From: a virus
Lineage: Duplodnaviria > Caudoviricetes
Strand: one strand, 5' to 3'
Virus record (IMG/VR): IMGVR_UViG_3300023179_000399
Span: 1 to 28,474 of that record
Length of the DNA: 28,474 nucleotides
Numbering within the stretch: the stretch's first letter is position 1; each line of letters begins with the position of its first letter. Shown one piece after another: positions 5,432 through 23,441 of this stretch. The notes below the pieces were generated by a model that did not search any database, was not told where the DNA came from, and saw only the letters and a program-made list of their open reading frames with translations. A program made the translations under genes and the position numbers.

Positions 5432-6469
5432 CTACAGCAGCAGGAGCAGCAACAGCAGCGCGGCGGCGCCAAATGCACCGCCTGAAGAAGCGGATGTTGG
5501 CTGTCCAGGACTGCCAATGCCGGTTGCACGGTCCGTCAGCACCGTTTCTGGCAATGCCAGTGCGGAGTTGTATCCCAGTACCACGCTCTGGGCGAATTCC
5601 CGGTAGGCCGCGGCCTGTCGCCTGGCATCGTTCATCTCACGGATGGCATCGGCGACCTGGACAAGTTGTATGACCGCAGACGCCCATATGGGAGCCCCCA
5701 GTGTGAAGACACTCGCCACTACTTGGATCACAACATCATAAGGGCTGCACGCAACCCTGCACTGGGCGTCCGGGAATTTTTCCGGGTCCAGCAGACCGTC
5801 AATTATCTCACCATTTGAAGGATTCCTAATCCTTCTAAGGTCTGTTCGTATTCTCCAGATAGCGTGAAATATTCCAGATTGGTAATCCCATGTGTAAGGC
5901 TCCCTCAGACTATGATAAACATCATTTAGAATTCTTGGAGTTACTTCTTCAACAAGTATTAATTCACCACAGCCTCCACAAGGTGGAGGACTAAAAGTCC
6001 AAAGGTTGTAGTAAAGATAGAAAACATCGGCAACTTGCATTTCGCGTATTGTCCGTTCTGCAAGTTCCTTGTCCGATTGCGTGAATGGGAAGTGGTCCCA
6101 TATAAATTCTCTAAACGTATCATTTGAGAATGCCAATGGAGTGTTAGATGCCAACGAGGCCCAAATCCGGAACAGTGAAAGATCATCGCGGCTGAACTGG
6201 GTCAATGTCGACAGGTCCGTCCTGCCATCATTCCACCCTTCTTTCCACCAGGATGCGGTTCCGTCAGGGCGAAGGGTCCAGACGGTGCGGGTTCTCCCTT
6301 CATAATGGCCTCCGTTAGGAAAAATCTGGTTCTGAGTGGTCCATCCGATTCTCCGTGTCCCATCCGGGTCCGTGGTGTCCCACCACACCTTTGGGACTTC
6401 GTATGGTGCAGAACCTCCACTCGCCTGATACCTTGCAAGCGATTCCCCCCAGTCTTTTGCGACGGTCAT
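5432..6469 (-). CDS. Tail-anchored membrane protein (345 aa)
   Basis: Start MTVAKDW coupled by TGATG; ends SSGGAFGAAALLLLLLLL. Confidence 0.8.
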   Translation of the reverse strand: MTVAKDWGESLARYQASGGSAPYEVPKVWWDTTDPDGTRRIGWTTQNQIFPNGGHYEGRTRTVWTLRPDGTASWWKEGWNDGRTDLSTLTQFSRDDLSLFRIWASLASNTPLAFSNDTFREFIWDHFPFTQSDKELAERTIREMQVADVFYLYYNLWTFSPPPCGGCGELILVEEVTPRILNDVYHSLREPYTWDYQSGIFHAIWRIRTDLRRIRNPSNGEIIDGLLDPEKFPDAQCRVACSPYDVVIQVVASVFTLGAPIWASAVIQLVQVADAIREMNDARRQAAAYREFAQSVVLGYNSALALPETVLTDRATGIGSPGQPTSASSGGAFGAAALLLLLLLL

Positions 6470-6780
6470 CAGTATCCTTTCCGGATCGCATCCTCCACCA
6501 CCCGTTTCATCCCGGCAACACCGAGGCGGCCGATGGTTCCCCACTTGATCTGCGCGACGACACCGGACAGCCGGTGGTCCTCGAAGTGCCGGGCGATCCA
6601 CGCCGGCCGGGTGACGGTCCACCAGTGCATCACCGTGGGCGAGCGGTCACCCTTGCGGTAGGCGCTCCACCAGCGGAATGCGTCATTGCCCCGGATGTTC
6701 CCGCCGCGCTTCCAGATGCCCGGGAAGTGCTCCTTGAGCGCCTTGGCGTACCGGTGGGGGAACTGGCGGGGAGTCTTCAA
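6469..6780 (-). CDS. Basic phage hypothetical protein (IWK.GGNIRGN...AW.ARHF...GVVAQIKW)
   Basis: Fills the operon; the motif looks like a conserved phage domain of unknown function. Confidence 0.75.
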   Translation of the reverse strand: MKTPRQFPHRYAKALKEHFPGIWKRGGNIRGNDAFRWWSAYRKGDRSPTVMHWWTVTRPAWIARHFEDHRLSGVVAQIKWGTIGRLGVAGMKRVVEDAIRKGY

Positions 6781-6783
6781 GGA

Positions 6784-7221
6784 CTACCTCCCCCGACCCA
6801 TCAGGAACACCGCGGCACCGGCAAGCAGCAACGCGATGACGACCGTATTCCCGAGCCCGCCCTCGCTCCCCAGCGTCGCCGTCATCGCGGCGATGTCCTG
6901 CTGCGCCTGCGCCTCGGTGATCTCGGACGCGGGCGGTGCGGTGAGCAGGATCCCGCCGCCGGACGTGGTCGGGGCAATTGTGATGTTCGACCGGTAGAAC
7001 TTCCCCATGTAGGACGTGGTGAGCGTGGTCGCCGTGTTCGCCACGACGCGCCAGGAGTCCTGGTAGGTGAGTCCGGACGGGAGCGCCTGCACCGGTGTCA
7101 TCACGAAGCGCATTCCGATGGTCGCATCGGTCTGGTTGATCGCGCTGAAATATCCGGTCATGCCGTTGAGGGTGATCTGGAAGTAATAGGTGCTTCCAAC
7201 CGTTCCGAGGTATTTGATCAT
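6784..7221 (-). CDS. Tail-anchored membrane protein (145 aa)
   Basis: C-terminus VVIALLLAGAAVFLMGRGR. Confidence 0.8.
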   Translation of the reverse strand: MIKYLGTVGSTYYFQITLNGMTGYFSAINQTDATIGMRFVMTPVQALPSGLTYQDSWRVVANTATTLTTSYMGKFYRSNITIAPTTSGGGILLTAPPASEITEAQAQQDIAAMTATLGSEGGLGNTVVIALLLAGAAVFLMGRGR

Positions 7222-8618
7222 AGTAGCAAAAGTAGTCCCGCAATCAGTAGCGGGTTAAATTTCGTTCCGCCCGACGTTTCATCAATCGTGACAGGAGTTC
7301 CGGGAGATTCAACCATGGAGGACGGGACCACGGGAGCCGCCTGCGGCACCACCAGGTGGATCCCCGTGGCGTCCGGCACCGGACCCCAGGGCACCCCGTT
7401 GCGGAACGATCCCGACGCCGGCCAGAAGCCGCCCACGTTCACCAGGGCATGGTCCGGAGTGAACCCCGTCGCCGCGCCGGGCACGACCATCACGCGGTCG
7501 AACCCGCTCGCATCCTTACGGTAGTCGGGGCCGAAGTCCCGGTCCCAGATGTAGGTGGCGAACATCGAGGGCCACACTTCCCGGTTGGCCAGCCAGAACA
7601 TGGTGATCGGCGCACCCAGCTGCACCGAGTTGTACTGCACCAGCACATCGTCATGAATGGCGATGGACCTCGCGTTGAACTCGTGGGGATAGCTTGGCCG
7701 GAACCGGAACATGTTCTGGCTTGTCAGGTGGATGAAGTTGTTCCCGTTCGTGACCGTGTTGCCGGTGATCCGGGTCCCGCGGTGAATGCCGGTGTCGACG
7801 TAGAAGCAGGTTCCCTCGAAGTCGCCGAAGCGGTTTCCGGTCATCCGGAACCCGATCGTGTAGACGGGGGTCACGCCATGCAGCGGGCTGGTCTGGGTCT
7901 CGCTCGACTTCCCCTTGAAGGTGCAGTCCACCACCGCACATCCCGACGCGAAGATGCCGGCCTCGAGCGCCCCGCCGACGCACACATAGGTCACCGCCTC
8001 GACGGATCCTCCGCCCACGGGCTGGCGGGTATTCCTCCCCGGTGTATGGAATGAGCAGCGGCGAACCACCGCGCCCTGGGAGCCGTCCGCGGAATCCGTG
8101 GCGAGGGTGCAGAAGACGACGAAGCTCTCCCCGTTCATCGGGCCGACGCCGAAGCGCAGGAACTCGCAGTCCTCGATGACCGTGCCGGGGCCGGTGACGT
8201 CGATCCCGGAAATGGTCGCGTCCTGGTTCCGGCCATCGTAGTTGCCGTCCAGGGTGATCCCGGAAATCCGCGTGTTCCGGACTTCATGCCCATGGTAGAC
8301 GGGCGAGATGCTGCGGATCATGAAGGCCGAGGTGGCCACCGGAGAGTCCCGCTTGGCCGAGGTGTCGTCGGCGAACTTGAGGATGGTGCGCCCGCGGCCG
8401 GCGCCGGTGATGCGGATCCCGTCCCGGTTGCCCTCGCCCCACCCGAACATGATGCAGGAGCGCAGGGTGCCAATCGGGTTGGTCTGCCCGGAATCCCCGA
8501 GCACGTACACGCCCTCGCCCAGCTCGACGGCGCCGAACTGGGACAGGCACTGGTTGATCGCCGGGGCACAGTTGGTGACCCCGTCGGCGACCGCGCCGAA
8601 TTGTTCGGGCCGGGCCAT
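7218..8618 (-). CDS. Right-handed beta-helix (pectate-lyase-3/tailspike-like) protein with a C-terminal hydrophobic anchor
   Basis: FGAVADGVTNCAPAINQCL, ITGAGRG.TIL, I.G.TLDGN, repeated I.GN rungs; ends FNPLLIAGLLLLL. Confidence 0.85.
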   Translation of the reverse strand: MARPEQFGAVADGVTNCAPAINQCLSQFGAVELGEGVYVLGDSGQTNPIGTLRSCIMFGWGEGNRDGIRITGAGRGRTILKFADDTSAKRDSPVATSAFMIRSISPVYHGHEVRNTRISGITLDGNYDGRNQDATISGIDVTGPGTVIEDCEFLRFGVGPMNGESFVVFCTLATDSADGSQGAVVRRCSFHTPGRNTRQPVGGGSVEAVTYVCVGGALEAGIFASGCAVVDCTFKGKSSETQTSPLHGVTPVYTIGFRMTGNRFGDFEGTCFYVDTGIHRGTRITGNTVTNGNNFIHLTSQNMFRFRPSYPHEFNARSIAIHDDVLVQYNSVQLGAPITMFWLANREVWPSMFATYIWDRDFGPDYRKDASGFDRVMVVPGAATGFTPDHALVNVGGFWPASGSFRNGVPWGPVPDATGIHLVVPQAAPVVPSSMVESPGTPVTIDETSGGTKFNPLLIAGLLLLL

Positions 8619-8621
8619 GGT

Positions 8622-8966: not shown

Positions 8967-8969
8967 AAA

Positions 8970-10175
8970 TCAGTGGATTCCGATGACGATGGCCATGTCG
9001 GTGAAACGCTTGTCGCCGCAGGCATGTTTCCCGCCCGGCAGACAGTCACCGCAGTAGCCGGGGCAGACGAACACGCCTTTGGCCGAGAAGTCGCCCTTGA
9101 TCCCCGCCGCCTTGGCGGCATCGAGGACCTCCTTCATGTGGGTATTCCACTCCGGGGTCACCTTGCCGGTCCGCGATCGGCCGGGGGACTTGCTCTGGAC
9201 CTTGAGGGCGCGGAACGTCCCGCGGGCGATCCGGTGTCCGGTCTTGGGGTTCTTCAGCGTCAGCATCCGTTTCACCACCGCCTGGAACTTTTCGCGGGAA
9301 AGGACCCGTTCCAGCTTGGTCCCGCTGGAAAGGTTCATCACGTAGTTTGAGGGCCAGTTCCCGTTGTTGTCCTGATGCCACCGCTCGAAGAAGCTCCAGC
9401 TCTTGCTATACCCGTAGAACTCGTTCTCCGGGTAGCGTTCGCAGAAGTGCATCCAGTAGGTGAGGGTCTCCATCGAGTCCATGTCCCCGTCCACGTAGAG
9501 CCGGACCACCTGGCCGGGCTTGAACTTCGCCCGCGCCTCGGCCTCGATCCAGGTCTTGTCCCGCATGCGGATCAGCAGGGTGTTCTGTAGCTGCCGGAAG
9601 AACGGGGTGACGTGGCGCCACTGGCTGAAGCTGTAGCACCATCCCCGCTTGTTCTTGTCCTCGGGACTCACCAGGCAGTCACCGGCGCCGGGACAGGTGA
9701 CACCAGGCAGCGCGCTGAACGCCCAGAAGGGCAGCTTGATGTTGCCCTTGGCGAAGATGGTGTAGGGAGGCTTCTGTCCGATTGGGTCCTTGAGCCACTG
9801 GCGCATCTTGCGTATGGCGTTCAGGTAGGCTGTCCCACCGGGTTTGCCGGTCTTGGTGATGGTCTTGCCATCCTCGGTGAGGACCGCCTGCTCGAGGTCG
9901 TCGAACGCCTTGTTCAGCTTGGTGATGGTGTCGGCCAGCGCCGCGGTGTAGGCGGCGTCGTTGAGCTTCTGAAAGCTGACGAGGATTGCACCCGTGGGGG
10001 TGTAGTACCGGTCATAGACGTTGGCCGGGTTCTTCCGTTCCTGGGAGGCGCCATGCAGGGTGTTCTCGAACAGCTGGTAGGTCGTCGCACCCAGGAACTT
10101 GGACGCCTCCTTGAGTTCCCCGATGGTGACGTCGGAGAACGGGATCGGCGGTGGGACAATCAGGTCATCATTCAT
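8970..10175 (-). CDS. GP88-like (radical-SAM-related) Cys-cluster protein
   Basis: FSALPGVTCPGAGDC...WCY, VRLYVDGD, FYGYSKSW, N....LS, CPGYCGDC..HACG, terminal IGIH. Confidence 0.72.
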   Translation of the reverse strand: MNDDLIVPPPIPFSDVTIGELKEASKFLGATTYQLFENTLHGASQERKNPANVYDRYYTPTGAILVSFQKLNDAAYTAALADTITKLNKAFDDLEQAVLTEDGKTITKTGKPGGTAYLNAIRKMRQWLKDPIGQKPPYTIFAKGNIKLPFWAFSALPGVTCPGAGDCLVSPEDKNKRGWCYSFSQWRHVTPFFRQLQNTLLIRMRDKTWIEAEARAKFKPGQVVRLYVDGDMDSMETLTYWMHFCERYPENEFYGYSKSWSFFERWHQDNNGNWPSNYVMNLSSGTKLERVLSREKFQAVVKRMLTLKNPKTGHRIARGTFRALKVQSKSPGRSRTGKVTPEWNTHMKEVLDAAKAAGIKGDFSAKGVFVCPGYCGDCLPGGKHACGDKRFTDMAIVIGIH

Positions 10176-10789
10176 CCCATCTTGGAAGCCTGGCGGTTGA
10201 TGTCGTTGTCCGGGATGATGTAGGCGCCGCTTTCGACGTATGGATTCCGTCGCACGGGCCTGATCTTCTTCATGACCGATTGAAGGGTTTCACCAGTCGG
10301 AACAGTTCCCTTGACCTTCATGATCATTGCACCCGTCGACAGAATCTTCTTGATAGTCTTGGAAGACTGCTCGAATGGAACACTGATGGTCTTCAGATTA
10401 CCGCCGTGCGAATACTCGATTTCGACGTATGAATTGACACGAGGATTCCTGCGAATGGAGCGGTCTTTTCCATGAAGTTTGAAGACCTCTTTGAAGTCGT
10501 CCACAGCCTCCTCACGCGAAAGTCCGGCATAGCGGATCCATTCCCGCTTTCCGTCGACAATGGCCGAAACCTTCAGATGTCCGGATGGCTTGAGGACTTC
10601 GACACGCACCCCATCCCTTTGCATTGGATTCATCCGCTCAGTCATCGCTTCTTCCCGATACCCCCGGATGATCCTCTCCTGTTCGCGCTTGGATTTCCCG
10701 GCGATTGCCTCCTCGAGCCACTCGGGCAGGTCACTGTCACCGCGTGGATCCTCGGCGCCCGCGTTGTCGTATTCGGCTTTTCGGCTCAT
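10172..10789 (-). CDS. Modular hypothetical protein with three R-x-N-P motifs (205 aa)
   Basis: Start MSRKAEY coupled by ATGA; RMNP, RRNP, RRNP. Confidence 0.8.
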   Translation of the reverse strand: MSRKAEYDNAGAEDPRGDSDLPEWLEEAIAGKSKREQERIIRGYREEAMTERMNPMQRDGVRVEVLKPSGHLKVSAIVDGKREWIRYAGLSREEAVDDFKEVFKLHGKDRSIRRNPRVNSYVEIEYSHGGNLKTISVPFEQSSKTIKKILSTGAMIMKVKGTVPTGETLQSVMKKIRPVRRNPYVESGAYIIPDNDINRQASKMG

Positions 10790-11691
10790 GAATTTCGTTC
10801 CTTCTCGGCGGCGATCCTCGCCGCCTCCGGGTTCTTTGGTCCCTGCACCATCAGCATGCCCTTGTGCTTGCCCCACTTCTTGAAGTGGTCTTCCAGGCCG
10901 GATGGCGGTTCGCCTGCCAGAATGCACAAAACCCCCTTGTCGTCCAGCATTCCCTCGATCTCGGTCAGGGATGCCTCGTTGAGCGGCATGTCGGTATGGA
11001 TGACGTCGTAGAGCCGGTAGAAGTCCTCGCCGGTGGCCCGGTCGTAGTCCAGGACCCGGTCGCCGGGCTCGAGGACGGTCGAGAGCAGGCTGGTGACGGT
11101 CTGGCGGGGGTTGGCGCGGGACATCCTTGGATTCCGCATGTCGTCCGATGTGGAATTAAACCGTTTGCTCAAGGGGATTGCTTTCCCGGCATCGTCGTAG
11201 GTTACGGGATCGGCGGATTTGATCTGGGACGAATTGAACGGCATATAGACCCCGTATTCATCTCCAAGATCGGAAAGATCAGGAATGTAGAGGGTCCCAT
11301 ATCCCTTGCGGTCCAACTTCACTTTCTTTACCAGGTCTCCAATAAAATCCCGTGGTATGAGATCTGTTTCAAAATCAGGATCGTTCTGCCTTGGATGCGC
11401 CTTGTCCCACAGCCTGTCGATCTCGGCATGGCTTGACTTCCTGATCTTGCCGGGCTTGATGTAGTACGCCCCCACCTTTCCAAAGTGGGATGCGTGGTCT
11501 TTTGACTCGCTGAAAAAGTGGGCACCGTCTCTTGCTGCCGCCATGTCGAACTGGTTGAACTTGCTCTTTGTACCATGGAATACAGGTCCAACCGTATAAC
11601 CCATGGCTTTGGCCGCTCCATCCACCATCCCCTGTGCAGCCTTAACATCACCGCGTTTTACCGCGTCCATGTATTGGGCATCAGAATTCAT
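10786..11691 (-). CDS. ADP-ribosyltransferase-like protein (ART-PolyVal type) with a C-terminal extra module
   Basis: Y..AV..GD...AQ.MV..AAK..GY, VFHGT...F..F, G.HFF....A, QIKSADPVTYDD.G..IPLS.RFN. Confidence 0.78.
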   Translation of the reverse strand: MNSDAQYMDAVKRGDVKAAQGMVDGAAKAMGYTVGPVFHGTKSKFNQFDMAAARDGAHFFSESKDHASHFGKVGAYYIKPGKIRKSSHAEIDRLWDKAHPRQNDPDFETDLIPRDFIGDLVKKVKLDRKGYGTLYIPDLSDLGDEYGVYMPFNSSQIKSADPVTYDDAGKAIPLSKRFNSTSDDMRNPRMSRANPRQTVTSLLSTVLEPGDRVLDYDRATGEDFYRLYDVIHTDMPLNEASLTEIEGMLDDKGVLCILAGEPPSGLEDHFKKWGKHKGMLMVQGPKNPEAARIAAEKERNS

Positions 11692-11981
11692 GTATTGGCC
11701 GGCTTCCTGAACCTGGACAGCACCAGCTCCGTGCTCCTGAGCCCCAACGTGCCCACGAAGAACGCCACCGCATACTGCGTGTGCTCGGTGACGTGGAACA
11801 CGTCGAGGACCAGCGGCGTCAGGTAGTTCGCCGAGGCGGTCCCGGCGATCATCGTGACCATCGCGTCAAACTTCGATAGCCCCTTGATGTGGAACAGGCT
11901 ACCGAAAAACCCGGCGATCATGAACCCAATGTTGACGCCCAACCCGTTGAGCCAGTTGTTGGACACGTCGGAATCGTTCAT
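11688..11981 (-). CDS. Putative holin (3 TM, 97 aa)
   Basis: IAGFFGSL, AGTASANYLTP, AFFVG.LGL, basic C-terminus. Confidence 0.7.
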   Translation of the reverse strand: MNDSDVSNNWLNGLGVNIGFMIAGFFGSLFHIKGLSKFDAMVTMIAGTASANYLTPLVLDVFHVTEHTQYAVAFFVGTLGLRSTELVLSRFRKPANT

Positions 11982-11985
11982 CAGG

Positions 11986-12603
11986 TCAGGTGGTGATGGA
12001 TTTGACGGCCTCATGGACATCGGTGGAGTTCTGTCGGATCTTGGAGATGTCGGAGACCCGCTGCTTGATCGCCGCAACGATCTCGGGCGGGGCGGTCTCG
12101 ATGGCCATGATCAGCGTGTTGCGGACGTCCTCCGCGGTCTGGAGGATTCCCTGCGTCTGGTTCTGCTTGCGCGTCTTCCACGCCGCCACCGCGCCGGTGG
12201 CGAGCACCACCAGCTTCAGTCCCCAGTCGACCAATGGTCCCGTGGGCGTCGGGTTGAACCCGGAATTGATCCCGCGGGCGGTCTCGATGGCCGACGCGAA
12301 GTCGGGGTTGGTGGTGAACCCGTTGGTGGTGACGATGACGTTCGTCCAGATGCTGATCTGGGTGTTGGTGAAGATCAGCGGTTCCCGCTCGATCACGTTG
12401 GTGAGCACGACCCGCTCGCCGGCCACCAGGTTGGTGACCGTGAGCAGGTTGGTCCGCCAATGGACCTCGGGGACCGTGTTGGTGAGGAGCAGCACCACCG
12501 TGTTGGTCCGGGTGACCGGGATGATGGGCCGGGCGAAGGACGGGAAGGAACTGCACCCGCTGGCGGCGAGCAGGAGCAGCATAAGTGACATGAACTGTTT
12601 CAT
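11986..12603 (-). CDS. Lipoprotein with Thr-Asn repeats and an internal TM (possibly spanin-like)
   Basis: MKQFMSLMLLLLAASG-C lipobox, nine TN dipeptides, TM WGLKLVVLATGAVAAW, helical tail; adjacent to the holin. Confidence 0.75.
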   Translation of the reverse strand: MKQFMSLMLLLLAASGCSSFPSFARPIIPVTRTNTVVLLLTNTVPEVHWRTNLLTVTNLVAGERVVLTNVIEREPLIFTNTQISIWTNVIVTTNGFTTNPDFASAIETARGINSGFNPTPTGPLVDWGLKLVVLATGAVAAWKTRKQNQTQGILQTAEDVRNTLIMAIETAPPEIVAAIKQRVSDISKIRQNSTDVHEAVKSITT

Positions 12604-12604: not shown

Positions 12605-14125
12605 TTAGAATCCAGTGATGACAGAACCAGAATCAACCCAGAACGGTTTCCACATGTACTCGATTGCCGTAAGAGCGTTGGCTCCAACAGTGAACCGAAC
12701 CGTATCGGTTCCGGCAACCGGAGTGTCCTGGACAAGCGTTAAAGTCCCCGTCAATGGAGTAGCGCCGTATTGCTGGAATGATGTGGGAGTGATGGTTGAA
12801 GCAGCACCACCACCTCCGACCGAAAGCACGTAAGTATAAAACCCACGACTAGCCGCGCTCCATGTGCGGACAGTCAAGACACCGGACATCATCTTGCTGT
12901 ATGTTCCAATCGTCATCAGGCTGATGTTTGCAAGTGCAGCAAACCCAGCGCCAGAGTTGTTGTTGAAGGTGTAGCCTCTATAGTCGTTATCTGCCAAAAT
13001 TCGCGCCGTATTCCCGGAGTTTGTCAGCGTTATTGTCCCGATAGAAGTGATATTTGTAATGGTTGCCGAAGTTCCGTAATATGCATTCGCATAAAAGTTT
13101 CCAGCAAGGTAACCATTACGAAAACGAAGAGATCCTGTTGAAAATCCAATATCAACTGTCGAATCAGTCAACGGAATGATGTTTCCATTGAATTGAATTG
13201 AGCTGGAGTCTCCAGAAAGGCTCAGGAATTTGAATGCGCTTGGCGATCCAACCCTAACGAATGGAGAATAAATATCCGAAAACACTCCCGTGTTCGGGGT
13301 TGTTATTCCGATTGGATAGGGTGCTGCCAGTATCTGTTGTACGCGGACTGGACTTGTGAATTGCGACCAGTCTGTCCTGAGAATTCCGAAATAGTTGGTG
13401 TAGATGTAATTTGCAACAGCCGCATATCCTGCGTTGTTCAAGTGGATCTGATCGGAACGCAAGGACGCTGGAGGAATGTCCAAGTTGTAGTCATACACGT
13501 CATTGGTAAGTGCCGGGTTGTATGCAGCAACAAGAGCTTCACGAATAGGTACATACCTCGTACCATACGTTGCTGAAAGTTGTGCATTAAGATTTGTGAT
13601 TGCCGTGTATCCAACTCCTCCTATGGCGTCGTAAGGCACATACTCTCCGTTCAAAACATTCATTACAAGCCACCTGTTTGAATTTGCTCCATTTGCAAGA
13701 GCAGAAATCATCAGGTTGATGTTTGAAATAATGTTTGCCGGGCTGTTGGTATAGACATCATTTCTTCCGGCCCAGATGATTGTTGGAAGCGGATACGAGT
13801 TCGTGTCTGCAACCATGCGAGTTTTTATCTGTGTTGAAGTCTCCCCTCCAACACCTCCATTGCTGACAGCAAACCCGCTCAAAAGTCCAAGAGTTGCCGG
13901 GTAAGCATTGCTTGACGGACTTGCTCCAGTGCCGGCAGTAAGGGAATCGCCCCAAGTTGCGATATTCAGCCAGTTTGTGGACAGTATGGGCGCAACTGGA
14001 GATAGTTGTGACGAAACATTTTGTCCACGAAGGATCAGGTTTGTCTTGACCGTGATGTTGTTGAAGGTCTGCTGGGCGAACAGGGTCGACACGCAAAGGA
14101 CCAGGTAGAGGATGAACTTTTTCAT
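12605..14125 (-). CDS. SGNH/GDSL hydrolase-domain spike-like protein with a signal peptide
   Basis: GDSLT (I), GVGG (II), GRND (III), DQIH (V); N-terminal MKKFILYLVLCVSTLFA; beta-rich fibre-like C-half. Confidence 0.88.
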   Translation of the reverse strand: MKKFILYLVLCVSTLFAQQTFNNITVKTNLILRGQNVSSQLSPVAPILSTNWLNIATWGDSLTAGTGASPSSNAYPATLGLLSGFAVSNGGVGGETSTQIKTRMVADTNSYPLPTIIWAGRNDVYTNSPANIISNINLMISALANGANSNRWLVMNVLNGEYVPYDAIGGVGYTAITNLNAQLSATYGTRYVPIREALVAAYNPALTNDVYDYNLDIPPASLRSDQIHLNNAGYAAVANYIYTNYFGILRTDWSQFTSPVRVQQILAAPYPIGITTPNTGVFSDIYSPFVRVGSPSAFKFLSLSGDSSSIQFNGNIIPLTDSTVDIGFSTGSLRFRNGYLAGNFYANAYYGTSATITNITSIGTITLTNSGNTARILADNDYRGYTFNNNSGAGFAALANISLMTIGTYSKMMSGVLTVRTWSAASRGFYTYVLSVGGGGAASTITPTSFQQYGATPLTGTLTLVQDTPVAGTDTVRFTVGANALTAIEYMWKPFWVDSGSVITGF

Positions 14126-14486: not shown

Positions 14487-15065
14487 TTATGCCTGGATGT
14501 AAGTACCGCCGACCGACACGGCAGTCCCCGCCTGCACATGGGTTGCAAGGCTGTTGTTCACCCCCGCCGCATAGTGGAAAAGATTGGCAGACGTGCCGGT
14601 GGCACTCGCCGTCAGCGCCGTGGTTGCCCCGGCAGAAAGCCCGGAAGCGACCACGGACAATGGCTGGAAGTTGGCGACGATGGCGGGGACTGGAAGGAGA
14701 ACCTGGAGGTTTCCGCTGGCAGCACCGGACGCCGCCGAGACGTTGAAACTGGCGTTGAATATGACCGCCCCGCCGATGGCGACGAACCGAGCATCCACGA
14801 CCGTGTAGGTGAACACCCGGCCGCCACCGGAATCGACCAGGGTCGGCGCCCATATGCCGGCACGCGCACCGCTGGCGATCCATGAGCTGCCGGTCCAGAG
14901 GAAATTCTGCTGAAAGTCGGCATCGTAGACCATCATTCCGGCATCGCCGGAACCAAATCCAAGTGCAATCCGCCCCGTCGTGCTGTTGCTGGGAAACGAG
15001 AATCCGCGGCCGGAGATCTTGGCGGTCGTCTCCGTCGGGTTGAAGAAGAAGGATTGCGAACTCAT
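14487..15065 (-). CDS. Spike/fibre protein A (192 aa)
   Basis: GMMVYD......W.G..W module plus a receptor-binding-head-like beta domain (G.W.PTL...G.L...LP.P). Confidence 0.8.
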   Translation of the reverse strand: MSSQSFFFNPTETTAKISGRGFSFPSNSTTGRIALGFGSGDAGMMVYDADFQQNFLWTGSSWIASGARAGIWAPTLVDSGGGRVFTYTVVDARFVAIGGAVIFNASFNVSAASGAASGNLQVLLPVPAIVANFQPLSVVASGLSAGATTALTASATGTSANLFHYAAGVNNSLATHVQAGTAVSVGGTYIQA

Positions 15066-15632: not shown

Positions 15633-16034
15633 TCAGGAGATGATCGACTTGTAGCCGTGAAGCGCCAAGGTGATGTTGTTCACGGCTGCACCCAAATTGG
15701 TGAATGTGAAGAGGATGTTCGACTGTGGCTCGAACACGATGGGCCGGCGCTGGAGGATCTGCTGGTAGGCATTGCCGCAAAGCACCCGCTGCGGGACCGG
15801 GGCCGAGGACAGGTCGCGTCCCGTGCTCTGGTCACGGATCGAGACGCTGAACGAGTTCGGGTTGGGCAGGGTGTTCTCCGTGTCGAACGCCGCGCCGCCG
15901 GTGCCCAGGATCGCCGACAGCTCGAAGCGGGAGTCGGCCTGCATGACCAGGGTGAAAGATGCCGTGGAGCCGACCGCCGCCGAGCACTGGGCGGTGACCA
16001 CGTAGACGAAGGGGATGGAATCGGTGTTGTTCAT
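15633..16034 (-). CDS. Small jelly-roll-like minor capsid protein (133 aa)
   Basis: All-beta pattern: F.L..I, V.I.DQ.TGR.L, P.VF...SNI.F.F.N, terminal L.L.GYK; directly after the capsid pair. Confidence 0.65.
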   Translation of the reverse strand: MNNTDSIPFVYVVTAQCSAAVGSTASFTLVMQADSRFELSAILGTGGAAFDTENTLPNPNSFSVSIRDQSTGRDLSSAPVPQRVLCGNAYQQILQRRPIVFEPQSNILFTFTNLGAAVNNITLALHGYKSIIS

Positions 16035-16099: not shown

Positions 16100-16852
16100 C
16101 TACTGGCTCGGGCGGATGACGTAGCCGTCGAAGACCAGTCCCAGCTCCACGGATGGGGTTCCCGTCGCGTCGGCGGTGGTCAGGGCGGTGTTGGTGAAGT
16201 CGGGCGTGTTGCCCTCGGGGAAGTTGATGACGGCGCCGATCTGGATCTCGGGCTCGATGATCTGGATCGGGTCGATGTTGTAGACCGACTCGGCGCGCCA
16301 GTCGGGCTGTGCGCGCCAGTTGGTGTCGGAGACCTGGGTCTCGGCGGCAACACCCGTGCGGCTCGAACCCAGCGAGGCCACGTCGATGCCGAATCCGGGA
16401 GGGCACATGATGAACGGCTTGGAGATCTGGTAGTACAGCTTCTGGGCGAAGCTGATTTCCAGGACGCCCCGGTGCAGGAGGTCGTTGAGCTTCTCCATCG
16501 CCGAATTGGCCAGAGCGGTGTACCCGCGGAAGGCGAAGTTGGTGCCCGGGGTGAACCCCTGACGAACCTGCGGAACAAAGTTCGCGTAGGTGCGGATCTG
16601 GGTCAGGGCGAAGTATTCCTGCCCGAAGGAGGCGTTCTTCACCAGGTTGGTCTGCTCCAGCGTCTTGAAGATGCCGGAGCCACCGGCGCCAGGATCACTG
16701 GCACCGAGCGGGTTCGAGAAGAAGCTGACGCTGGACGTGCCGGCAGCGAGGAGGCGGACGAAGTCGTACTTCTGGCCGCGGACGATCTGGTAGCGCGAGA
16801 AGTCGGCAGAGCCGAACCGGCGCTGCAAACTGTTGAGGATGTCGGGATTCAT
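16100..16852 (-). CDS. Major capsid protein 2 (putative single jelly roll, 250 aa)
   Basis: Start MNPDIL; FF....G...KT...TNL....SFGQ.F.L..I and C-terminal LVFDGYVIRPSQ; paralog of the next gene; strong codon bias; followed by a terminator. Confidence 0.75.
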   Translation of the reverse strand: MNPDILNSLQRRFGSADFSRYQIVRGQKYDFVRLLAAGTSSVSFFSNPLGASDPGAGGSGIFKTLEQTNLVKNASFGQEYFALTQIRTYANFVPQVRQGFTPGTNFAFRGYTALANSAMEKLNDLLHRGVLEISFAQKLYYQISKPFIMCPPGFGIDVASLGSSRTGVAAETQVSDTNWRAQPDWRAESVYNIDPIQIIEPEIQIGAVINFPEGNTPDFTNTALTTADATGTPSVELGLVFDGYVIRPSQ

Positions 16853-16886
16853 GCTGGGATGATTCGAGGGTTCTTGGCGTCGTGTG

Positions 16887-17615
16887 TTACTGCATCGGGC
16901 GCAGGAGGACGCCGTCAAAAATGACGCCGATCTTCAGCGGGTTGGTGGTGTCGTTGACGACGTTGCTGGCAATCACCGGAACGATCCCGGACGGGAACGA
17001 GATCTTGGCGTTGAACTGCTGTTCAGCCTCGATCAGGATGTTCGGATCGGTGATGTAGACGTTCTTCCTGGAGCGGATCTGCGTGGCCCAGGGGAGACCC
17101 ACCACCGTGGTCGTGCCCGTGGTGGGAACGGCCAGGATCTGGTTGGCGTAGCTGTTCTCGTAGTCGACCTCGTTTCCGGGCGGCGGCAGGTAGAGGAACG
17201 GCTTCGGGACGGTCGCAAACGGACGCGCCCCGATGTTCAGGGTGAAGACACCAGCCTGGGCGAATCCGTTGATGATGTCGCTGGACAGGGTCCGGGTGTC
17301 CAACGTGGCCTGGTTGGCGAGGGTGAATCCGTCCACGTCATTGGACGGGATGCGGATGTCCGTGCTGATGGACTTCAGCAGGAAGTGGGTCTGGCCGAAG
17401 GAACCCGCCTTCGGAAGATTGGTGTCCGCCGTGGTGACGCCGGTCTGTCCGGCCACCTGGCCGAAGAAGTTCAACTCGGTGGTGCCGGCGGAGGGGTACT
17501 GGATGTAGGACCACCACTGCCAGCGGACAGCCTGCCAGCGGGAGTAGTCGATGGTGCCGAACTGGGCACTCGCCGCCATGATGACGGCTTCGGATTGGGT
17601 CGAGGAGGTAGCCAT
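16887..17615 (-). CDS. Major capsid protein 1 (putative single jelly roll, 242 aa)
   Basis: FFGQ..GQ...T.ADTNLPKAGSFGQTHFLLKSI and C-terminal VIFDGVLLRPMQ. Confidence 0.75.
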   Translation of the reverse strand: MATSSTQSEAVIMAASAQFGTIDYSRWQAVRWQWWSYIQYPSAGTTELNFFGQVAGQTGVTTADTNLPKAGSFGQTHFLLKSISTDIRIPSNDVDGFTLANQATLDTRTLSSDIINGFAQAGVFTLNIGARPFATVPKPFLYLPPPGNEVDYENSYANQILAVPTTGTTTVVGLPWATQIRSRKNVYITDPNILIEAEQQFNAKISFPSGIVPVIASNVVNDTTNPLKIGVIFDGVLLRPMQ

Positions 17616-17645
17616 TTTTGGGGTCTGGTCGGTGTTGCGTGATGG

Positions 17646-18413
17646 TTACTCGCCCCAGGCGTTCGACGGGAACGCGCTGGAATTGTCGAGCGCGCCGTTC
17701 ATCGGGGAGACGGATGCGAACCGGCTCGCGGCCATGTAGCCGGGCGGCAACTGGCCGACCGCGGACGTCGGGGTGTAGTCGAGGTACTCGCCGAGGCCGA
17801 GGGTGGTCGCCTGGGCCGGGGCGTACTGCTTGATGCCGGTGGTGATACCGTTGATGAGACCGGAGAGCAGCATTCCCTTGGCGAGGTTCGGGCTGGCCTT
17901 GCGGGTCAGCATCGCACCGAGCAGGGGAATGCCGACCGCGTAGGCGACCTTGACCGCCTTGGCGGTGTTCGCATCGGTCGGAATCGGCAGCATCGAGGTG
18001 TTGTCCGACTTCTTCATGTTGAGAAGATAGTTGGTCAACACGATGCCACCGACACCACCGGCGGCGATGGTGAGGTTCTCCTTGGAGAAGGAGGACTTCA
18101 GCTGCTGGGCGATGCCACCGGAGCCACCACCGAACGGGTTCATGCGGAACCCGCCCCGGCGATGCGAACGACGCCGGCGCGGATTGGCGCGGGCGTAGAT
18201 CACGGCCGCGGACTTGGACCCGCGCAGGTGGCGGACCTTGACGATCACGCGGCGGGCGCAGCGCCGGCTCGAGCGGCGCTTGGTGGCGCTGGCGACGTGG
18301 CGGTAGGTGGTCTTGGATCCGCGGCGCGTGGCGACCAGCGGATTCCGGCGGGTCCGACGGCGCGAGGACTTGCGCTTGCGACGCCGGGGATTGAGGAGCA
18401 TGAGGCTTTTCAT
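17646..18413 (-). CDS. Arg-rich core/DNA-condensing protein with hydrophobic C-half and N-P repeats
   Basis: Protamine-like first ~90 aa with LLNP, RRNP, RANP, RMNP, then 2-3 hydrophobic helices; first gene of the capsid operon. Confidence 0.8.
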   Translation of the reverse strand: MKSLMLLNPRRRKRKSSRRRTRRNPLVATRRGSKTTYRHVASATKRRSSRRCARRVIVKVRHLRGSKSAAVIYARANPRRRRSHRRGGFRMNPFGGGSGGIAQQLKSSFSKENLTIAAGGVGGIVLTNYLLNMKKSDNTSMLPIPTDANTAKAVKVAYAVGIPLLGAMLTRKASPNLAKGMLLSGLINGITTGIKQYAPAQATTLGLGEYLDYTPTSAVGQLPPGYMAASRFASVSPMNGALDNSSAFPSNAWGE

Positions 18414-18423
18414 GTTATTCTGG

Positions 18424-18451
18424 GTTCTATCAGGAACGGAACATGTGTCAA
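18424..18451 (-). promoter_or_regulatory. Promoter of the core/capsid operon
   Basis: TTGACA-N16-TAGAAC with a TGn extension; ATG 10 nt downstream. Confidence 0.7.
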
Positions 18452-18496
18452 CAGGTTGATTCGGATCTGTGTGGTTTATTTTCGGACACTCCGGTC

Positions 18497-18709
18497 CTAG
18501 CGCCGGACGGCAATCGGGGAGTCGTTCACGTAGATGATGCCTGCGATGGCATTCACGTTGTTGATCTCCAAAAGGAAGGCTTCCTTGTTCCTGCCAACAC
18601 GGCGAAGAACACGGGCCGCGGTATCACGACGACCGGACCAGGACAGGTTGGGGAAAATCACCTGTTCACCGGTGGCATTCAGCTCGGATTGACGGATGGG
18701 GATGGTCAT
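18497..18709 (-). CDS. Hypothetical protein (70 aa, MTIPIRQ...)
   Basis: ATGA coupling to the upstream gene. Confidence 0.7.
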   Translation of the reverse strand: MTIPIRQSELNATGEQVIFPNLSWSGRRDTAARVLRRVGRNKEAFLLEINNVNAIAGIIYVNDSPIAVRR

Positions 18710-19287
18710 CGACGGGAGGGCTTGTAGGCCATGAAGTAGTAGTAGCCGAAGGCGAGTGCGGCGACCGGCAGGATGTACTTGGCCATCGAGCCGATGGTGC
18801 CGACCGCCTGTCCGACGTTGGACACCGCGCCCGTGGCACCGACGACCACGTCCGTACCCGTGCTGGGCAGCCTTCCGACCAGTCCGCCGATCCCGCTGAA
18901 GAGGGCGTCGAAGAACCCGTTGTCCCGCGCATACTGGCGGAACGTGGTGTCGAAGGACCGGGCGTCGATGGGCGAGGCGAAGAGTCCCTGCTTGTCCCAT
19001 GCGGTGATGAACCGGCGGTTGGCCTCCTCGAGCCCGTAGGCCCGCTTCAGCGCCATATGCCAGGTCATCCAGTCGGACGCGGTCCACCAGGTGTCGAATC
19101 CCCAGTTGTCGTAGTCCGGCGTCGCAGTCGCCGAGGTGGGGTCATTGGCCGCGGGCCAGCCTCCGTCCGGGGCGTCACCAAACGGCTGGAGCGGATTGCG
19201 GATCCGCTGGAACCCAAGCGTGGATGTCGCCGGCTTTCCGGGTCCGGGATATCCGACCTCGCGGAATGGGACGAAGGGGGAATTCAT
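18706..19287 (-). CDS. Trp-rich tail-anchored membrane protein (193 aa)
   Basis: Start MNSPFVPF via TGATG; ends YILPVAALAFGYYYFMAYKPSRR. Confidence 0.82.
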   Translation of the reverse strand: MNSPFVPFREVGYPGPGKPATSTLGFQRIRNPLQPFGDAPDGGWPAANDPTSATATPDYDNWGFDTWWTASDWMTWHMALKRAYGLEEANRRFITAWDKQGLFASPIDARSFDTTFRQYARDNGFFDALFSGIGGLVGRLPSTGTDVVVGATGAVSNVGQAVGTIGSMAKYILPVAALAFGYYYFMAYKPSRR

Positions 19288-19499
19288 CAGTCCTTCCTGT
19301 GGGACTTGAGCAGGTACTGGGCGGCGATGGTGCCGGCGATGCCGACGAGGATCCAGAAGCAGGGATTCTGGAACGTCGCGCCGAAGGACACCGGGACCAG
19401 GTCCACCGACGGCTTCGGCCGCGGGGTCGTGGACGGTGTCGACGACGCGTCGGTCTCGACCGTGGTCTTGCCGAAATCCTGGGTGTAGGCGGCAGTCAT
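19287..19499 (-). CDS. Small tail-anchored membrane protein (70 aa)
   Basis: Thr/Pro linker, FWILVGIAGTIAAQYLL, basic tail. Confidence 0.8.
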   Translation of the reverse strand: MTAAYTQDFGKTTVETDASSTPSTTPRPKPSVDLVPVSFGATFQNPCFWILVGIAGTIAAQYLLKSHRKD

Positions 19500-19981
19500 T
19501 TGCGGCGGAGGATGAAGTACAGGGCGATGGCACCGACCGCCAGCGCGACGCCTCCGATGGCGAGCGTGGACATTGGCAGTCCTGTGGTGGGATTGACCGT
19601 GACGGTGGTGGCGGCGACCGCGGGCGTGAAGGGGATCGGGTCGGTCACACCGGACACGAACACGTAGAAATTGCCGGCCCGGTCCTTGGCCTTCACCCCG
19701 GAGACCTGCTGCCCGTTGTAGGTGATGGTGACCGCTTCAAGGAACGTCCACCCCTGACTGCGAAGCAAGGACATCCGGGTCTCGTTCATGACACCGCGGA
19801 GATAGGTGCCGACACCCCACTGGTTGGCGAGGTCGACCACATCGCTGAGGACATCGCCGACACCGTCGATGCGCGGCGTGGCCAGGCCCATGCCGCGACC
19901 GGTCAGGTATCCGTCAGGGTTGGCGTTCAGCGCGGAGGTGTAGCCGCGGGCGAAGGGGACGAATGGGGAATTGAGGTTCAC
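19496..19981 (-). CDS. Tail-anchored membrane protein (161 aa)
   Basis: GTG start overlapping the upstream TGA; ends LAIGGVALAVGAIALYFILRRK. Confidence 0.8.
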   Translation of the reverse strand: MNLNSPFVPFARGYTSALNANPDGYLTGRGMGLATPRIDGVGDVLSDVVDLANQWGVGTYLRGVMNETRMSLLRSQGWTFLEAVTITYNGQQVSGVKAKDRAGNFYVFVSGVTDPIPFTPAVAATTVTVNPTTGLPMSTLAIGGVALAVGAIALYFILRRK

Positions 19982-20298
19982 TTGCGCTTTCGGGTTGCGA
20001 GGAAGACGAGGGCGAGGGCCGCGACACCGACGCCCCCGGCGATCAGCATCGTGTTGGTCGAGATGCCGGACTGCGGGGTCGTGGTGGACGTGGTCGTGGT
20101 CGTGGTCGGGTTGGTCGTGGCGCCCGGTCGGGGTCGGTTGGTCCCGAGGGCGTTCTGGAGAGGCGGGACCCACAACGGCGCGGAAAGGGTCAGGACCGGC
20201 ATGATCCAGTCCATCCAGCCCTTGGCCTCGCTGGTGCGGTCGGCAAAGGAGGATCCCATGCCCTTGACGAAATCGACGCGTTGGCAGGAGCAGCTCAT
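19978..20298 (-). CDS. Tail-anchored membrane protein (106 aa)
   Basis: Poly-Thr linker; ends LIAGGVGVAALALVFLATRKRK. Confidence 0.82.
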   Translation of the reverse strand: MSCSCQRVDFVKGMGSSFADRTSEAKGWMDWIMPVLTLSAPLWVPPLQNALGTNRPRPGATTNPTTTTTTSTTTPQSGISTNTMLIAGGVGVAALALVFLATRKRK

Positions 20299-20732: not shown

Positions 20733-20735
20733 GCA

Positions 20736-21347
20736 CTATCCGACAACCAGCCGGTCCCGGTACTGTGGCACGGGACCGTCCTTGGCGCAGGGATCCATGA
20801 GGATCCACTCGCCGTTCAGCGAATACTCGACAACCACATGGTTGTAGTGCTGCGAATTACCTAACTTGACAGCAACAGCACGGGTTGGAATTCCAATTGA
20901 TGTAAGCATTGAGCCCAACAGAACTACATGGTCATCGCAGTCTCCATAGGCAAATCCTTTTGATTTGATGACATTCAGCAAAACGAGAGGAGTCTGAATG
21001 TATTCGGCTCCGTCAGGATCTGCCAAATAGACCATCTTTGAGATGACCCACGAATACAACGTATTGGCATTGCGCCGCACGTCGTTGTTGACCCTGGAGT
21101 AGAGGATTGCGACCGCCGCGGCCCGCACCTGGGGATTCCTTCCAAACTGCTCGATCACAAACTGCAACGCCCCGATGATGGTGATGGCATCCGGGGCGTC
21201 GGGCGAGATGGGGATTCGGTGGACCGTCCCGTCAGGATCCAGCAGCTTGAGCCGGACCGGCAGACGGGGTGCCACCGCGTACCGGGCGGTGCCGGCGTCT
21301 TTTTCGGGGCTCGAATACAGGACTCGCATCCCCGCATTCTCCACCAA
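20736..21347 (-). CDS. Transglutaminase-like Cys-His-Asp enzyme (candidate maturation protease)
   Basis: Y..DP.G.E..QTP, GDCDD....L.S.L.SIG, NHV, W..MDP. Start may be 21329. Confidence 0.85.
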   Translation of the reverse strand: MVENAGMRVLYSSPEKDAGTARYAVAPRLPVRLKLLDPDGTVHRIPISPDAPDAITIIGALQFVIEQFGRNPQVRAAAVAILYSRVNNDVRRNANTLYSWVISKMVYLADPDGAEYIQTPLVLLNVIKSKGFAYGDCDDHVVLLGSMLTSIGIPTRAVAVKLGNSQHYNHVVVEYSLNGEWILMDPCAKDGPVPQYRDRLVVG

Positions 21348-21564
21348 TCTCCGGCCTTCGCAATGACATTGGCAACGACCGGTTGAACACCGAGAGCAAC
21401 GGGACCCGGAAAACGATCCGGGTCCCGTAGCGTCGGAAGATCAGGTCCGTGCCATCCGACTCGATGGACCAGGGATTGGTCCCGTGGTCAAACAGGTGAC
21501 CCAGTCGCGCCCGGTACTTGCGGCGTTGCAGGGGTGGCAGGCGCTTCTGCACTGGCTTCTTCAT
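21232..21564 (-). CDS. Basic hypothetical protein overlapping both neighbours
   Basis: GC3-rich codons across the 21347-21488 gap; start uncertain. Confidence 0.45.
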   Translation of the reverse strand: MKKPVQKRLPPLQRRKYRARLGHLFDHGTNPWSIESDGTDLIFRRYGTRIVFRVPLLSVFNRSLPMSLRRPEIGGECGDASPVFEPRKRRRHRPVRGGTPSAGPAQAAGS

Positions 21565-22696
21565 CGTCGGGACCGGGGTTCAGGATGACGTCGCGCAGGC
21601 TCTCGAACCATGCCCCGTTCTCGACCACGCCGGGCGTGTTGCCGAACAGGTCGGTGATCCAGGTCGGGCGCTCGAGGATCTGGCAGAGCATCTCGAACTC
21701 CACATCGTCGAGGAAGGAGTCGAGCATCGGCGAGATCTCGGTGACGTCCTTGTTCTCCTTCGCGGACTTCAACAGCAATGGCGTGGCGAAGCGCAGCTGC
21801 CCCAGGAGGTGCTCAACCCGGCGGTTGGTCTCGATGTACTGCGGATTGGGCTGTGGCGGTCCCACCGGGATCGGCTGTTGTGGCTGTTGCGGTGCCTGTG
21901 GCGGCTGCTGTGGATTGCGAGATGCCATGAAGGCACCAATGGCGGGGCCGACCACCTGGGCCAGCTTTGCGACCTTGTCGAGCATGTCTTCCTCTTTCGG
22001 TTCGGAATTGTTGGACGGTGAATCGTTCAGCTCCCGGAGCGCCTTCACGGTCGCTACCGTCTCGGCGATGCCCCCGCGGGGCTTCATGCTCTCGATCAGG
22101 AGCGGGGTGAGCAGCTCGATGATGTTGCCTCCCGCGGGTGCGGTCGGCGACTTGCCGGTGAGCGCGGCGACCAGGACCTCGGTGGAGGACTTCTGGTTCT
22201 GGAGCATCATGGTGAGGAGCAGCTGCTGCTGGGCCTGTGCCTGTGCGGCCTGGCGTTCGGCCATCTCGCGGGTTGCCAGAGCCTGTTCCTTGGCGTTGGC
22301 GAGCATCATCATCAGGAAATCGTTGGAACCCTGGGGCTGACCGGCGATCGGGGTCACGGGCTTTTCCGGTTCCTTGTAAATCTCCCCGATGTGGCGCGGG
22401 TGGACGCTGGTGCGAAGGGTCCTCACGTACTTGCCGGTACGGGTCGCCAACTTCAGCGTGTACTTGCCGCCACCGTAGAGGCGCTTCAGCTCCTCGAGGC
22501 TGAAGGTGTCGATGGGCATCTCGCCCTCGTAGTCGTATTCGGACCGTCCCGGTGCCTGCCGGTGGATCAGGACGCGTCCATCGGAAATGTCGAGCGACTT
22601 GGCCAAGTCGCGGATTCGTGAGATCTCCTCCTCGCCGTCGATGGAGGACTCGGTCTGCTGGCCTTCAAGTTCGGGAGCGTTCTGGAATTGGGACAT
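21488..22696 (-). CDS. Gln/Met-rich coiled-coil protein (402 aa; scaffold or membrane-assembly candidate)
   Basis: Start MSQFQN; YGGGKY domain, long Q/M/A helices, Pro/Gln linker, acidic helical C-domain. Confidence 0.8.
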   Translation of the reverse strand: MSQFQNAPELEGQQTESSIDGEEEISRIRDLAKSLDISDGRVLIHRQAPGRSEYDYEGEMPIDTFSLEELKRLYGGGKYTLKLATRTGKYVRTLRTSVHPRHIGEIYKEPEKPVTPIAGQPQGSNDFLMMMLANAKEQALATREMAERQAAQAQAQQQLLLTMMLQNQKSSTEVLVAALTGKSPTAPAGGNIIELLTPLLIESMKPRGGIAETVATVKALRELNDSPSNNSEPKEEDMLDKVAKLAQVVGPAIGAFMASRNPQQPPQAPQQPQQPIPVGPPQPNPQYIETNRRVEHLLGQLRFATPLLLKSAKENKDVTEISPMLDSFLDDVEFEMLCQILERPTWITDLFGNTPGVVENGAWFESLRDVILNPGPDDEEASAEAPATPATPQVPGATGSPV

Positions 22697-22698
22697 GT

Positions 22699-23109
22699 TC
22701 AGGAGATGAATTGGACCGCGGTGACTTTCGGGAAGGACTTGGTGTCGAGCAGCACGTCGAGCTGGTACGGGACGAACAGGGCCTTGGCATCGGTGGTGAT
22801 GCGCCATTCCTTGTCGATCACCGTCTCGGCCTTGAACTGGTGATGGTACTTCTGGTGGTGGACCCGCTTGTAGTCCGCGGTGCCGATGATCGCGTAGCGG
22901 ATCTCCGAGAGCTTCGCCCACTTCTTGCCGATGACCTCGGACATGCTGACGGGGCCATCGAGCACGTTGCCGGGCGTGGTCACCACCAGTTGTCCGCGCT
23001 GGTGGTCTAGGACGATCAGCTGCGCTGCCAACTGGTCGTCGAAACGGACCTTGGACCCGTCGGCAAGGACCAGTTCTTCGACGCTGTAAAAATGGGTCAG
23101 GGCGTTCAT
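22699..23109 (-). CDS. Hypothetical protein (136 aa)
   Basis: ATGA coupling; strong codon bias. Confidence 0.78.
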   Translation of the reverse strand: MNALTHFYSVEELVLADGSKVRFDDQLAAQLIVLDHQRGQLVVTTPGNVLDGPVSMSEVIGKKWAKLSEIRYAIIGTADYKRVHHQKYHHQFKAETVIDKEWRITTDAKALFVPYQLDVLLDTKSFPKVTAVQFIS

Positions 23110-23441
23110 GGTTCGTTGTATCGGATTCCAACCAGGTAGGTGACTTCGTCCTGCTGCAAAGTGTCGCCATCGGCTTCGGGGTCTTCCATCGGCTCGATGT
23201 CGGAGACATGTTTGGATGCCTCCACTCCATAAAATCCGGCTTCAACGGCCGCTTCGTGAAGCAGACTTGTGTCCAATCCTGCAAGAGAGAGGTCGTTCAG
23301 GGCGTCGTCAATGGCCTGACGTGCCGATGATCCCTCGCCAATGACGACACAGTCGAACCCGCGGAACGAAGCGCCCCACGTCAACAGTTCCCCTTCGGGG
23401 ACGATGCCAAGGTCCAGGATCTCAAATTGGTAGATAACCAT
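23106..23441 (-). CDS. Acidic hypothetical protein (111 aa)
   Basis: Start MVIYQFEI; D/E-rich. Confidence 0.72.
   Translation of the reverse strand: MVIYQFEILDLGIVPEGELLTWGASFRGFDCVVIGEGSSARQAIDDALNDLSLAGLDTSLLHEAAVEAGFYGVEASKHVSDIEPMEDPEADGDTLQQDEVTYLVGIRYNEP

Follow-up and report, generated by a model that had tools for sequence, protein, structure and literature searches.

How a tailless virus with no recognisable packaging motor encloses its DNA is the question raised by the stretch of DNA analysed here (28,474 nt, IMG/VR record IMGVR_UViG_3300023179_000399; the whole stretch is called the window), for which a map of 46 genes was used. The window is the nearly complete linear genome of a tailless virus with a protein-primed DNA polymerase (pPolB), the full genome measuring about 29.1 kb or slightly more. 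The original prediction, made from the letters of the DNA, held that it encodes no A32/FtsK-type ATPase, terminase or portal and that a superfamily 2 (SF2) helicase is its only credible P-loop protein, and both statements were upheld by Pfam, PHROG and NCBIfam scans and by six-frame and controlled profile searches. We lean towards the view that this virus encapsidates its DNA without any motor, by ATP-independent co-assembly around a condensed core.

Search for a packaging ATPase

Scanning the 46 genes with Pfam and PHROG gave P-loop family matches for the SF2 helicase (2755-4353) and for no other gene, and no match to a terminase, a portal or phrog_2666; NCBIfam, run on 21 of the 46 genes, added no further P-loop match and no A32, FtsK or terminase match. 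A strict Walker A pattern occurred three times in the six frames of the window, once in a non-coding frame, once inside pPolB and once in the 136-aa protein at 23555-23965. When PF04665, phrog_2666 and phrog_6891 were compared with the six frames, stops being read through, none matched in the window, while phrog_2666 recovered its positive controls P23-77 and SH1 at 3e-40 and 2e-78, respectively. We also built a custom profile on 11 ATPases annotated in tailless viruses and submitted it to a leave-one-out test, in which 10 of the 11 were recovered at E <= 7e-9, these being all 10 true A32-type members, and SSIP-1 gp40 reached only 0.11. With Z fixed at 500, the best E value of the full profile was 1.0 against the 504 segments of the window and 0.2 against 79 related loci (494 kb, 9,351 segments), and a ten-member profile without gp40 gave a best E of 0.54 in the window.

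These 79 loci come from a metagenome scan in which 80 of 84 loci were confirmed, one of them being the window itself. Fourteen hold pPolB and both major capsid protein (MCP) genes, and all 14 possess the ten core genes without an ATPase, in the window's order in the 13 relatives mapped; a terminal-protein candidate was also reached in nine of the 14. The loci reach 10 kb from the MCP, leaving the distal arm with the helicase outside their range. Because the ATPase of P23-77, SH1, SNJ1, the PRD1-like L17 and PM2 is no more than about 3 kb away from the MCP, the usual place of this gene is well covered in the relatives. The relatives, which the original prediction proposed to examine, share the lack of a detected ATPase, both in the 79 loci by profile and in the pPolB-to-capsid arm of the 14. 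Among the candidates that were rejected, a 38-codon off-frame segment of one relative (L006) resembling the PM2 ATPase (13.5 bits, E 0.001, Z 500, 9,351 segments) was judged a chance match, and 47 Walker A-like strings in the relatives had no credible Walker B save two in wrong-frame open reading frames (ORFs).

That a divergent ATPase is present but was missed, either in an orphan ORF or in sequence beyond the contig ends, seems to us hardly likely. The inverted terminal repeats (ITRs) found by terminal repeat comparison occupy 1-127 and 28348-28474, and a 439-nt contig in sequencing run X1, possibly the sample from which the window came, spans these terminal 127 nt and extends 312 nt beyond each window end. 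The 127-nt repeat is hence the inner portion of a longer one, of at least 439 nt, and both window ends are clipped. Assemblers commonly use a word size of 127, equal to the length of the ITR in the window. The original description of the genome as complete stands as nearly complete and was slightly overstated, at least 312 nt of ITR being absent per end. This missing sequence would leave some room for an undetected enzyme, as would the CheckV completeness of 33%, a figure likely obtained by comparison with unrelated larger phages, and the lack of a confident model for the product of 5432-6469. However, the 312 nt hold at most 104 codons and the control ATPases measure 164-275 aa, so that the stretch absent at each end is too short for a motor, and the intergenic gaps of the map do not exceed 221 nt. 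Furthermore, no unassigned ORF of the size of the control ATPases has a Walker A, and the candidates without this motif are a coiled-coil protein, very basic proteins and non-conserved orphans.

Three regions had been singled out in the original prediction as places where a P-loop fold might hide. The product of 21488-22696 (minus strand) is a 402-aa protein without Walker A, conserved at 35-66% identity, whose model shows a small four-strand beta domain, a 57-residue helix within a long coiled coil and a helical bundle, with no P-loop topology (predicted local distance difference test, pLDDT, 57.7; predicted TM-score, pTM, 0.26); we consider it a likely assembly scaffold. Fold searches with this low-confidence model returned no P-loop NTPase among the matches listed and nothing at Z >= 8, and the protein structure Atlas contained only unnamed clusters for the protein and nothing for 5432-6469. 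At 22699-23441 (minus strand) stand two small genes, both conserved, whose products of 136 and 111 aa have no family match and lie below the size of the A32 controls, the first of them (22699-23109, 136 aa) being shorter than every ATPase control. The third region, 5432-6469 (minus strand), encodes a 345-aa orphan with a hydrophobic C-terminal tail, without Walker A and without a homologue in the 79 loci. As a separate observation, residues 20-100 of the 402-aa protein matched best with Rubisco small-subunit-like domains (Z 6.1-6.8, below the confidence range of the tool).

Capsid, core and proposed packaging mechanism

MCP1 (16887-17615, minus strand) is predicted to be a single jelly roll, its model, based on a 125-sequence alignment, containing one jelly-roll barrel in 242 aa (pLDDT 86.5, pTM 0.83). 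Comparison with solved structures placed the SPV1 capsid protein first (Z 7.8, root-mean-square deviation 3.3, 137 aligned residues, 10% identity), followed by HHIV-2 (Z 6.7) and HCIV-1 (Z 6.3), and SPV1 was again first in Foldseek (E 0.015), scores so modest that they tell more about the class of fold than about the family. An SPV1-like capsid fold is in this way supported. MCP2 (16100-16852, minus strand) is a paralogue of MCP1 (30% identity, E 3e-22), and by this homology only it is predicted to be a single jelly roll too. The conserved beta-rich 133-aa protein encoded after the MCP genes (15633-16034, minus strand; 47 of 79 loci) would be the penton, judging from its position. Homologues of MCP1 in metagenomes form 426 clusters at 90% identity and 199 at 50%. 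The family is therefore common in metagenomes yet nearly absent from the virus contig collection scanned, where MCP1, alignment A1, pPolB, the helicase and a degenerate capsid motif all found no relatives. No MCP match was obtained in the phage collection, nor anything significant in a PDB sequence search and a PHROG scan with the MCP alignments.

Directly upstream of the MCP genes is encoded an Arg-rich protein (17646-18413, minus strand), whose first 100 aa contain 35 K/R and not a single D/E and are followed by moderately hydrophobic helices; it is likely to be a DNA-condensing core protein. Its homologues are found in 73 of the 79 loci, and the 15 displayed keep the layout of basic arm and helices where they are complete. 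In P23-77, SH1 and SNJ1 the corresponding position is occupied by genes whose products have hydrophobic helices, with no basic arm like that of the Arg-rich protein. Of the five small genes at 18497-20298 (minus strand), four are conserved in 14 of 14 long relatives, and two possess a strong C-terminal hydrophobic helix and are likely membrane proteins.

The Arg-rich protein carries three copies of the short motif [RK]x?NP, with 0.27 expected (1 of 2000 shuffles). The same motif appears eight times, against 0.54 expected (0 of 2000 shuffles), in three unrelated proteins of the region 8970-11691, all on the minus strand: a GP88-family protein identified by Pfam (8970-10175, two motifs), a 204-aa orphan (10172-10786, three motifs) and a protein with a Pfam ART-PolyVal ADP-ribosyltransferase domain (10786-11691, three motifs). 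The three are likely virion cargo. The other 42 genes hold six motifs against 3.5 expected (70 of 500 shuffles). In seven of seven relatives tested the positional cluster is enriched as well, with 3-9 copies of the motif where 0.2-1.0 would be expected (0-3 of 500 shuffles), and the other genes of two relatives are not enriched. The clusters of two relatives (L005 and L015) are polyproteins with ART-PolyVal and methyltransferase domains, the motifs lying between or beside the domains. We consider it possible that [RK]x?NP is a virion-loading tag or a cleavage site. In the motif-bearing regions of the relatives (L005:16605-19744, L015:14289-18549 and L043:18153-20712) it is often near domain junctions. 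Between the small genes and the coiled-coil gene, a transglutaminase-like protein (20736-21347, minus strand) was recognised by Pfam. Its triad C137/H170/D185 is intact and does not vary among the sequences aligned (22 of 22), and the protein is likely a protease or a cross-linker.

Placing these genes into a model of assembly, the Arg-rich protein would coat and condense newly made genomes, and its C-terminal helices, together with the small membrane proteins, would tie the resulting core to a patch of host-derived membrane, to which the 402-aa coiled-coil protein would give its shape. Around this core the shell would then be closed by the two capsid proteins and the penton, and the [RK]x?NP motifs would route the ADP-ribosyltransferase and GP88 cargo into the core or mark the cuts of the transglutaminase-like enzyme. 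The interpretation in the original prediction, co-assembly of membrane and capsid around DNA condensed by the Arg-rich protein, is thereby supported in part; the precedents among double jelly-roll viruses (Odin group, FLiP), a possible link to SSIP-1 and the [RK]x?NP motif are additions of the present analysis.

Another way of accounting for the missing motor is that the SF2 helicase (2755-4353, plus strand) doubles as one, which we judge very unlikely. It is the only P-loop NTPase of the window and its motifs are intact (a variant Walker A, AGIGKT, plus DEVH, SAT and QFLGRVHR), and the helicase cluster P0277 and the MCP cluster P0003 share a longest contig of 23,985, which suggests that the two genes co-occur in one close relative. 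Against such a role, the gene belongs to the non-structural arm, where it is encoded on the other strand in the company of DUF932 and HNH genes; 12 kb separate it from the capsid genes, and its product lacks the [RK]x?NP motif. At least nine helicase clusters stand at 49-57% identity, whereas the best 120 MCP clusters are all at 71% or more, and these few helicase clusters against many close MCP clusters suggest a patchy, accessory presence. SF2 helicases are not known to act as capsid motors.

A motor could also be borrowed, a host translocase of FtsK/HerA type or the ATPase of a co-infecting helper virus pumping the DNA into a procapsid. The genome is 29 kb long and capped by terminal proteins, the kind that PRD1 pumps with P9 according to PMC6356626, and satellites with incomplete morphogenetic modules are described in 10.1101/2025.02.15.638363. 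Nevertheless, the window is unlike a satellite in encoding a polymerase, capsids, spikes and a holin itself, a different role would have to be supposed for the conserved Arg-rich protein, and no helper was identified, though no helper search was made. We regard borrowing as unlikely.

Several points weigh against the motor-free co-assembly that we favour. The mechanism is deduced here from the genes alone, and its support consists entirely of an absence together with inference. Pfam alone missed the PRD1-type P9 control, so that the Pfam negatives carry little weight, which rests instead on the custom profile and phrog_2666. Only two proteins were folded, one of them being the 402-aa protein with its low scores, and 5432-6469 lacks a usable structural model, that of the Atlas being too poor for fold typing. 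The view of the relatives is limited to 10 kb around the MCP, and the 199 distant MCP clusters come without genomic context. The Z of the SPV1 match of MCP1 lies where the search tool speaks of a "common arrangement" and exceeds that of the following match by only 1.1. The membrane anchor that had been ascribed to the Arg-rich protein is weak, its best hydrophobic window on the Kyte-Doolittle scale being only moderate (1.47 over 19 aa or 1.81 over 15 aa), although its Arg-rich nature, its conservation and its place by the capsid genes are all supported. The [RK]x?NP motif was noticed post hoc in relatives that are not independent, and its counts are descriptive. Finally, the ATPase-less double-stranded DNA cases met in the literature consulted are smaller, those of the Odin group measuring 7-11 kb (PMC5894146).

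Replication genes, host and other features

The pPolB gene (24102-25940, minus strand) was identified by Pfam and PHROG and shares 23-29% identity with the pPolB of Tectiviridae, Autolykiviridae and MetSV. Upstream of it, near the genome end, a basic conserved protein of 303 aa (26597-27508, minus strand) is the terminal-protein candidate, as suggested by position and basic composition alone. The 136-aa protein adjoining pPolB (23555-23965, minus strand), conserved in the related loci, is presumably similar to single-stranded DNA-binding proteins, by its size and place. A Mom-like DNA modification gene (25937-26593) is inserted between the terminal-protein candidate and pPolB; it has no homologue in the 79 related loci, where other small genes occupy that place. 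A perfect 27-nt inverted repeat (417-443 and 27943-27969) lies a short way upstream of the second gene of both arms, and it is possible that it is a shared early regulatory element.

Two genes on the minus strand encode likely attachment proteins recognised by Pfam and PHROG, namely a beta-helix/tail-spike-like protein, likely a vertex spike (7218-8618), and a GDSL/tail-fibre-like receptor-binding protein (12605-14125). A 199-nt duplication (14285-14483 and 14867-15065, 80%) yields paralogous N-termini, and several spike genes of the relatives begin with this module, which suggests a swappable vertex-anchor domain. Some relatives also encode a conserved protein of 280-290 aa without a Pfam match, not found in the window (L005:15210-16070, L017:15491-16363), to which we would attribute a trypsin-like look from its GDSG motif.

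The presence of holin (11688-12077, minus strand; phrog_2359, E 6e-10), Mom and spike genes points to a bacterial host. Beside the holin, 11986-12600 encodes a protein with a lipoprotein-like N-terminus (LAASGC) and a hydrophobic stretch close to its C-terminus, which we take to resemble a one-piece spanin, a hint that the host is a diderm; among the genes of the window no endolysin was recognised. Near-identical DNA occurs in sequencing runs whose labels read lake water, freshwater or unspecified metagenome, and none of the runs listed is an RNA dataset. Genome contigs gave two loci, of which one was real, a capsid region of 4,546 nt (L092) in an Actinomycetota bin with no flanking host genes seen; because genes of the window's family alone gave matches on this contig, it is a weak lead and not host evidence. 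The other (L093) was a chance match in cellular DNA.

Comparison with known viruses

The likeliest cultured relative of the window's virus is SSIP-1. The top BFVD match of MCP1 was I1ZBH9, an unnamed protein of 211 aa (E 1.8e-4, TMq 0.41), with I1ZBI0 (256 aa) at rank 22, and from matching protein sizes we take these two to be SSIP-1 gp46 and gp47. Both genomes have adjacent paralogous capsid-like genes (gp45/gp46, E 1e-12), in both a coiled-coil gene precedes that of a transglutaminase (gp33/gp34, the transglutaminase matching that of the window at E 9e-13), and neither has a phrog_2666 match. SSIP-1 also presents R-x-NP motifs in gp41-gp43, with four [RK]x?NP in gp38-gp44 against 1.08 expected (12 of 1000 shuffles). 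Its gp40 (L082:24775-25737) is predicted to be the packaging ATPase from its Walker motifs in PMC4124505. In our searches gp40 matched AAA_25, KaiC and UvsX-like profiles and not phrog_2666, so that by its sequence it appears RecA/KaiC-like and not A32-type, and SSIP-1 would be without an A32 ATPase. The window has no counterpart of gp40 (0 matches to phrog_6891). The two genomes also differ in that SSIP-1 is circular (43.8 kb), with an integrase, no pPolB and a hypersaline host, whereas the window is linear and carries pPolB. Sequence profiles of the capsid, coiled-coil and Arg-rich proteins had no significant match in SSIP-1. Both the wide distribution of transglutaminases and the differences in genome form and replication speak against the link.

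Tectiviridae, Autolykiviridae and MetSV share pPolB and linear genomes with the window, and Tectiviridae ITRs as well, but they have a double jelly-roll MCP and a P9-type ATPase, and the window has neither. The Halopanivirales (SH1, HCIV-1, HHIV-2, P23-77 and SNJ1) resemble it in having two MCPs of the single jelly-roll type and, before them, a protein with hydrophobic helices, yet all the controls tested encode an A32-type ATPase, while the window has pPolB and no detected ATPase. Further characters of this group are an internal membrane, a T=28 lattice and a haloarchaeal host. SH1-type genomes are linear, of 28-31 kb with ITRs, and the sphaerolipoviruses lack a canonical polymerase (PMC12643093); the window is likewise linear, with its length and ITRs resembling those of Sphaerolipoviridae.

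Tailless viruses without a packaging ATPase are already known, namely SPV1 (Portogloboviridae), FLiP and the Odin group. SPV1 has a circular genome of about 20 kb, a nucleoprotein core and an archaeal host, and its capsid protein is the best solved-structure match of MCP1. By PMC8812541 it has no packaging ATPase and a single MCP gene; the window resembles it in having no detected ATPase and differs in its two MCP paralogues and its linear genome with ITRs. FLiP, reported in the same paper to be without a packaging ATPase, is a double jelly-roll virus with circular single-stranded DNA, whereas the window is linear with a predicted single jelly roll. The Odin group, as described in PMC5894146, has a double jelly-roll MCP and no packaging ATPase, some of its contigs carry inverted repeats or PolB, and assembly of the capsid around the genome is proposed for it. 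The window has one barrel in its MCP1 model and a genome of about 29 kb. We found no account in the open-access literature of two single jelly-roll capsids together with a 29-kb protein-primed genome and no motor.

In PMC8812541 the two-MCP viruses are proposed to descend from an ancestor resembling SPV1, through duplication of the capsid gene and acquisition of the ATPase. The same paper presents the FtsK-type ATPase as a hallmark of the single jelly-roll viruses with two capsid proteins and as the original argument linking them to double jelly-roll viruses. The family of the window has the duplication without the ATPase gain, either ancestrally or by loss. A widespread two-capsid family with a 29-kb protein-primed genome and no motor would break this link, would carry packaging without a motor to genome sizes several times those of the Odin group and would supply a test of the order of events, whether duplication preceded the motor or the motor was lost. 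It is conceivable, and no more than tentatively proposed, that this family and SSIP-1 form an unrecognised two-capsid single jelly-roll lineage that never acquired an FtsK-type motor, assembles around an Arg-rich core and loads interchangeable effectors by means of an [RK]x?NP tag that the transglutaminase-like enzyme would read or cut. In such a scenario the lineage would be the intermediate implied by the published proposal, with capsid duplication first and the ATPase later, and SSIP-1, being already cultured, would be the test system, with gp40 as a RecA-like cargo. The findings on gp40 also suggest that SSIP-1, a cultured virus, was mis-assigned a packaging motor, a point testable at the bench. 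By the features compared, the virus of the window works like SPV1, yet it is a member of neither Portogloboviridae, Halopanivirales nor Tectiviridae.

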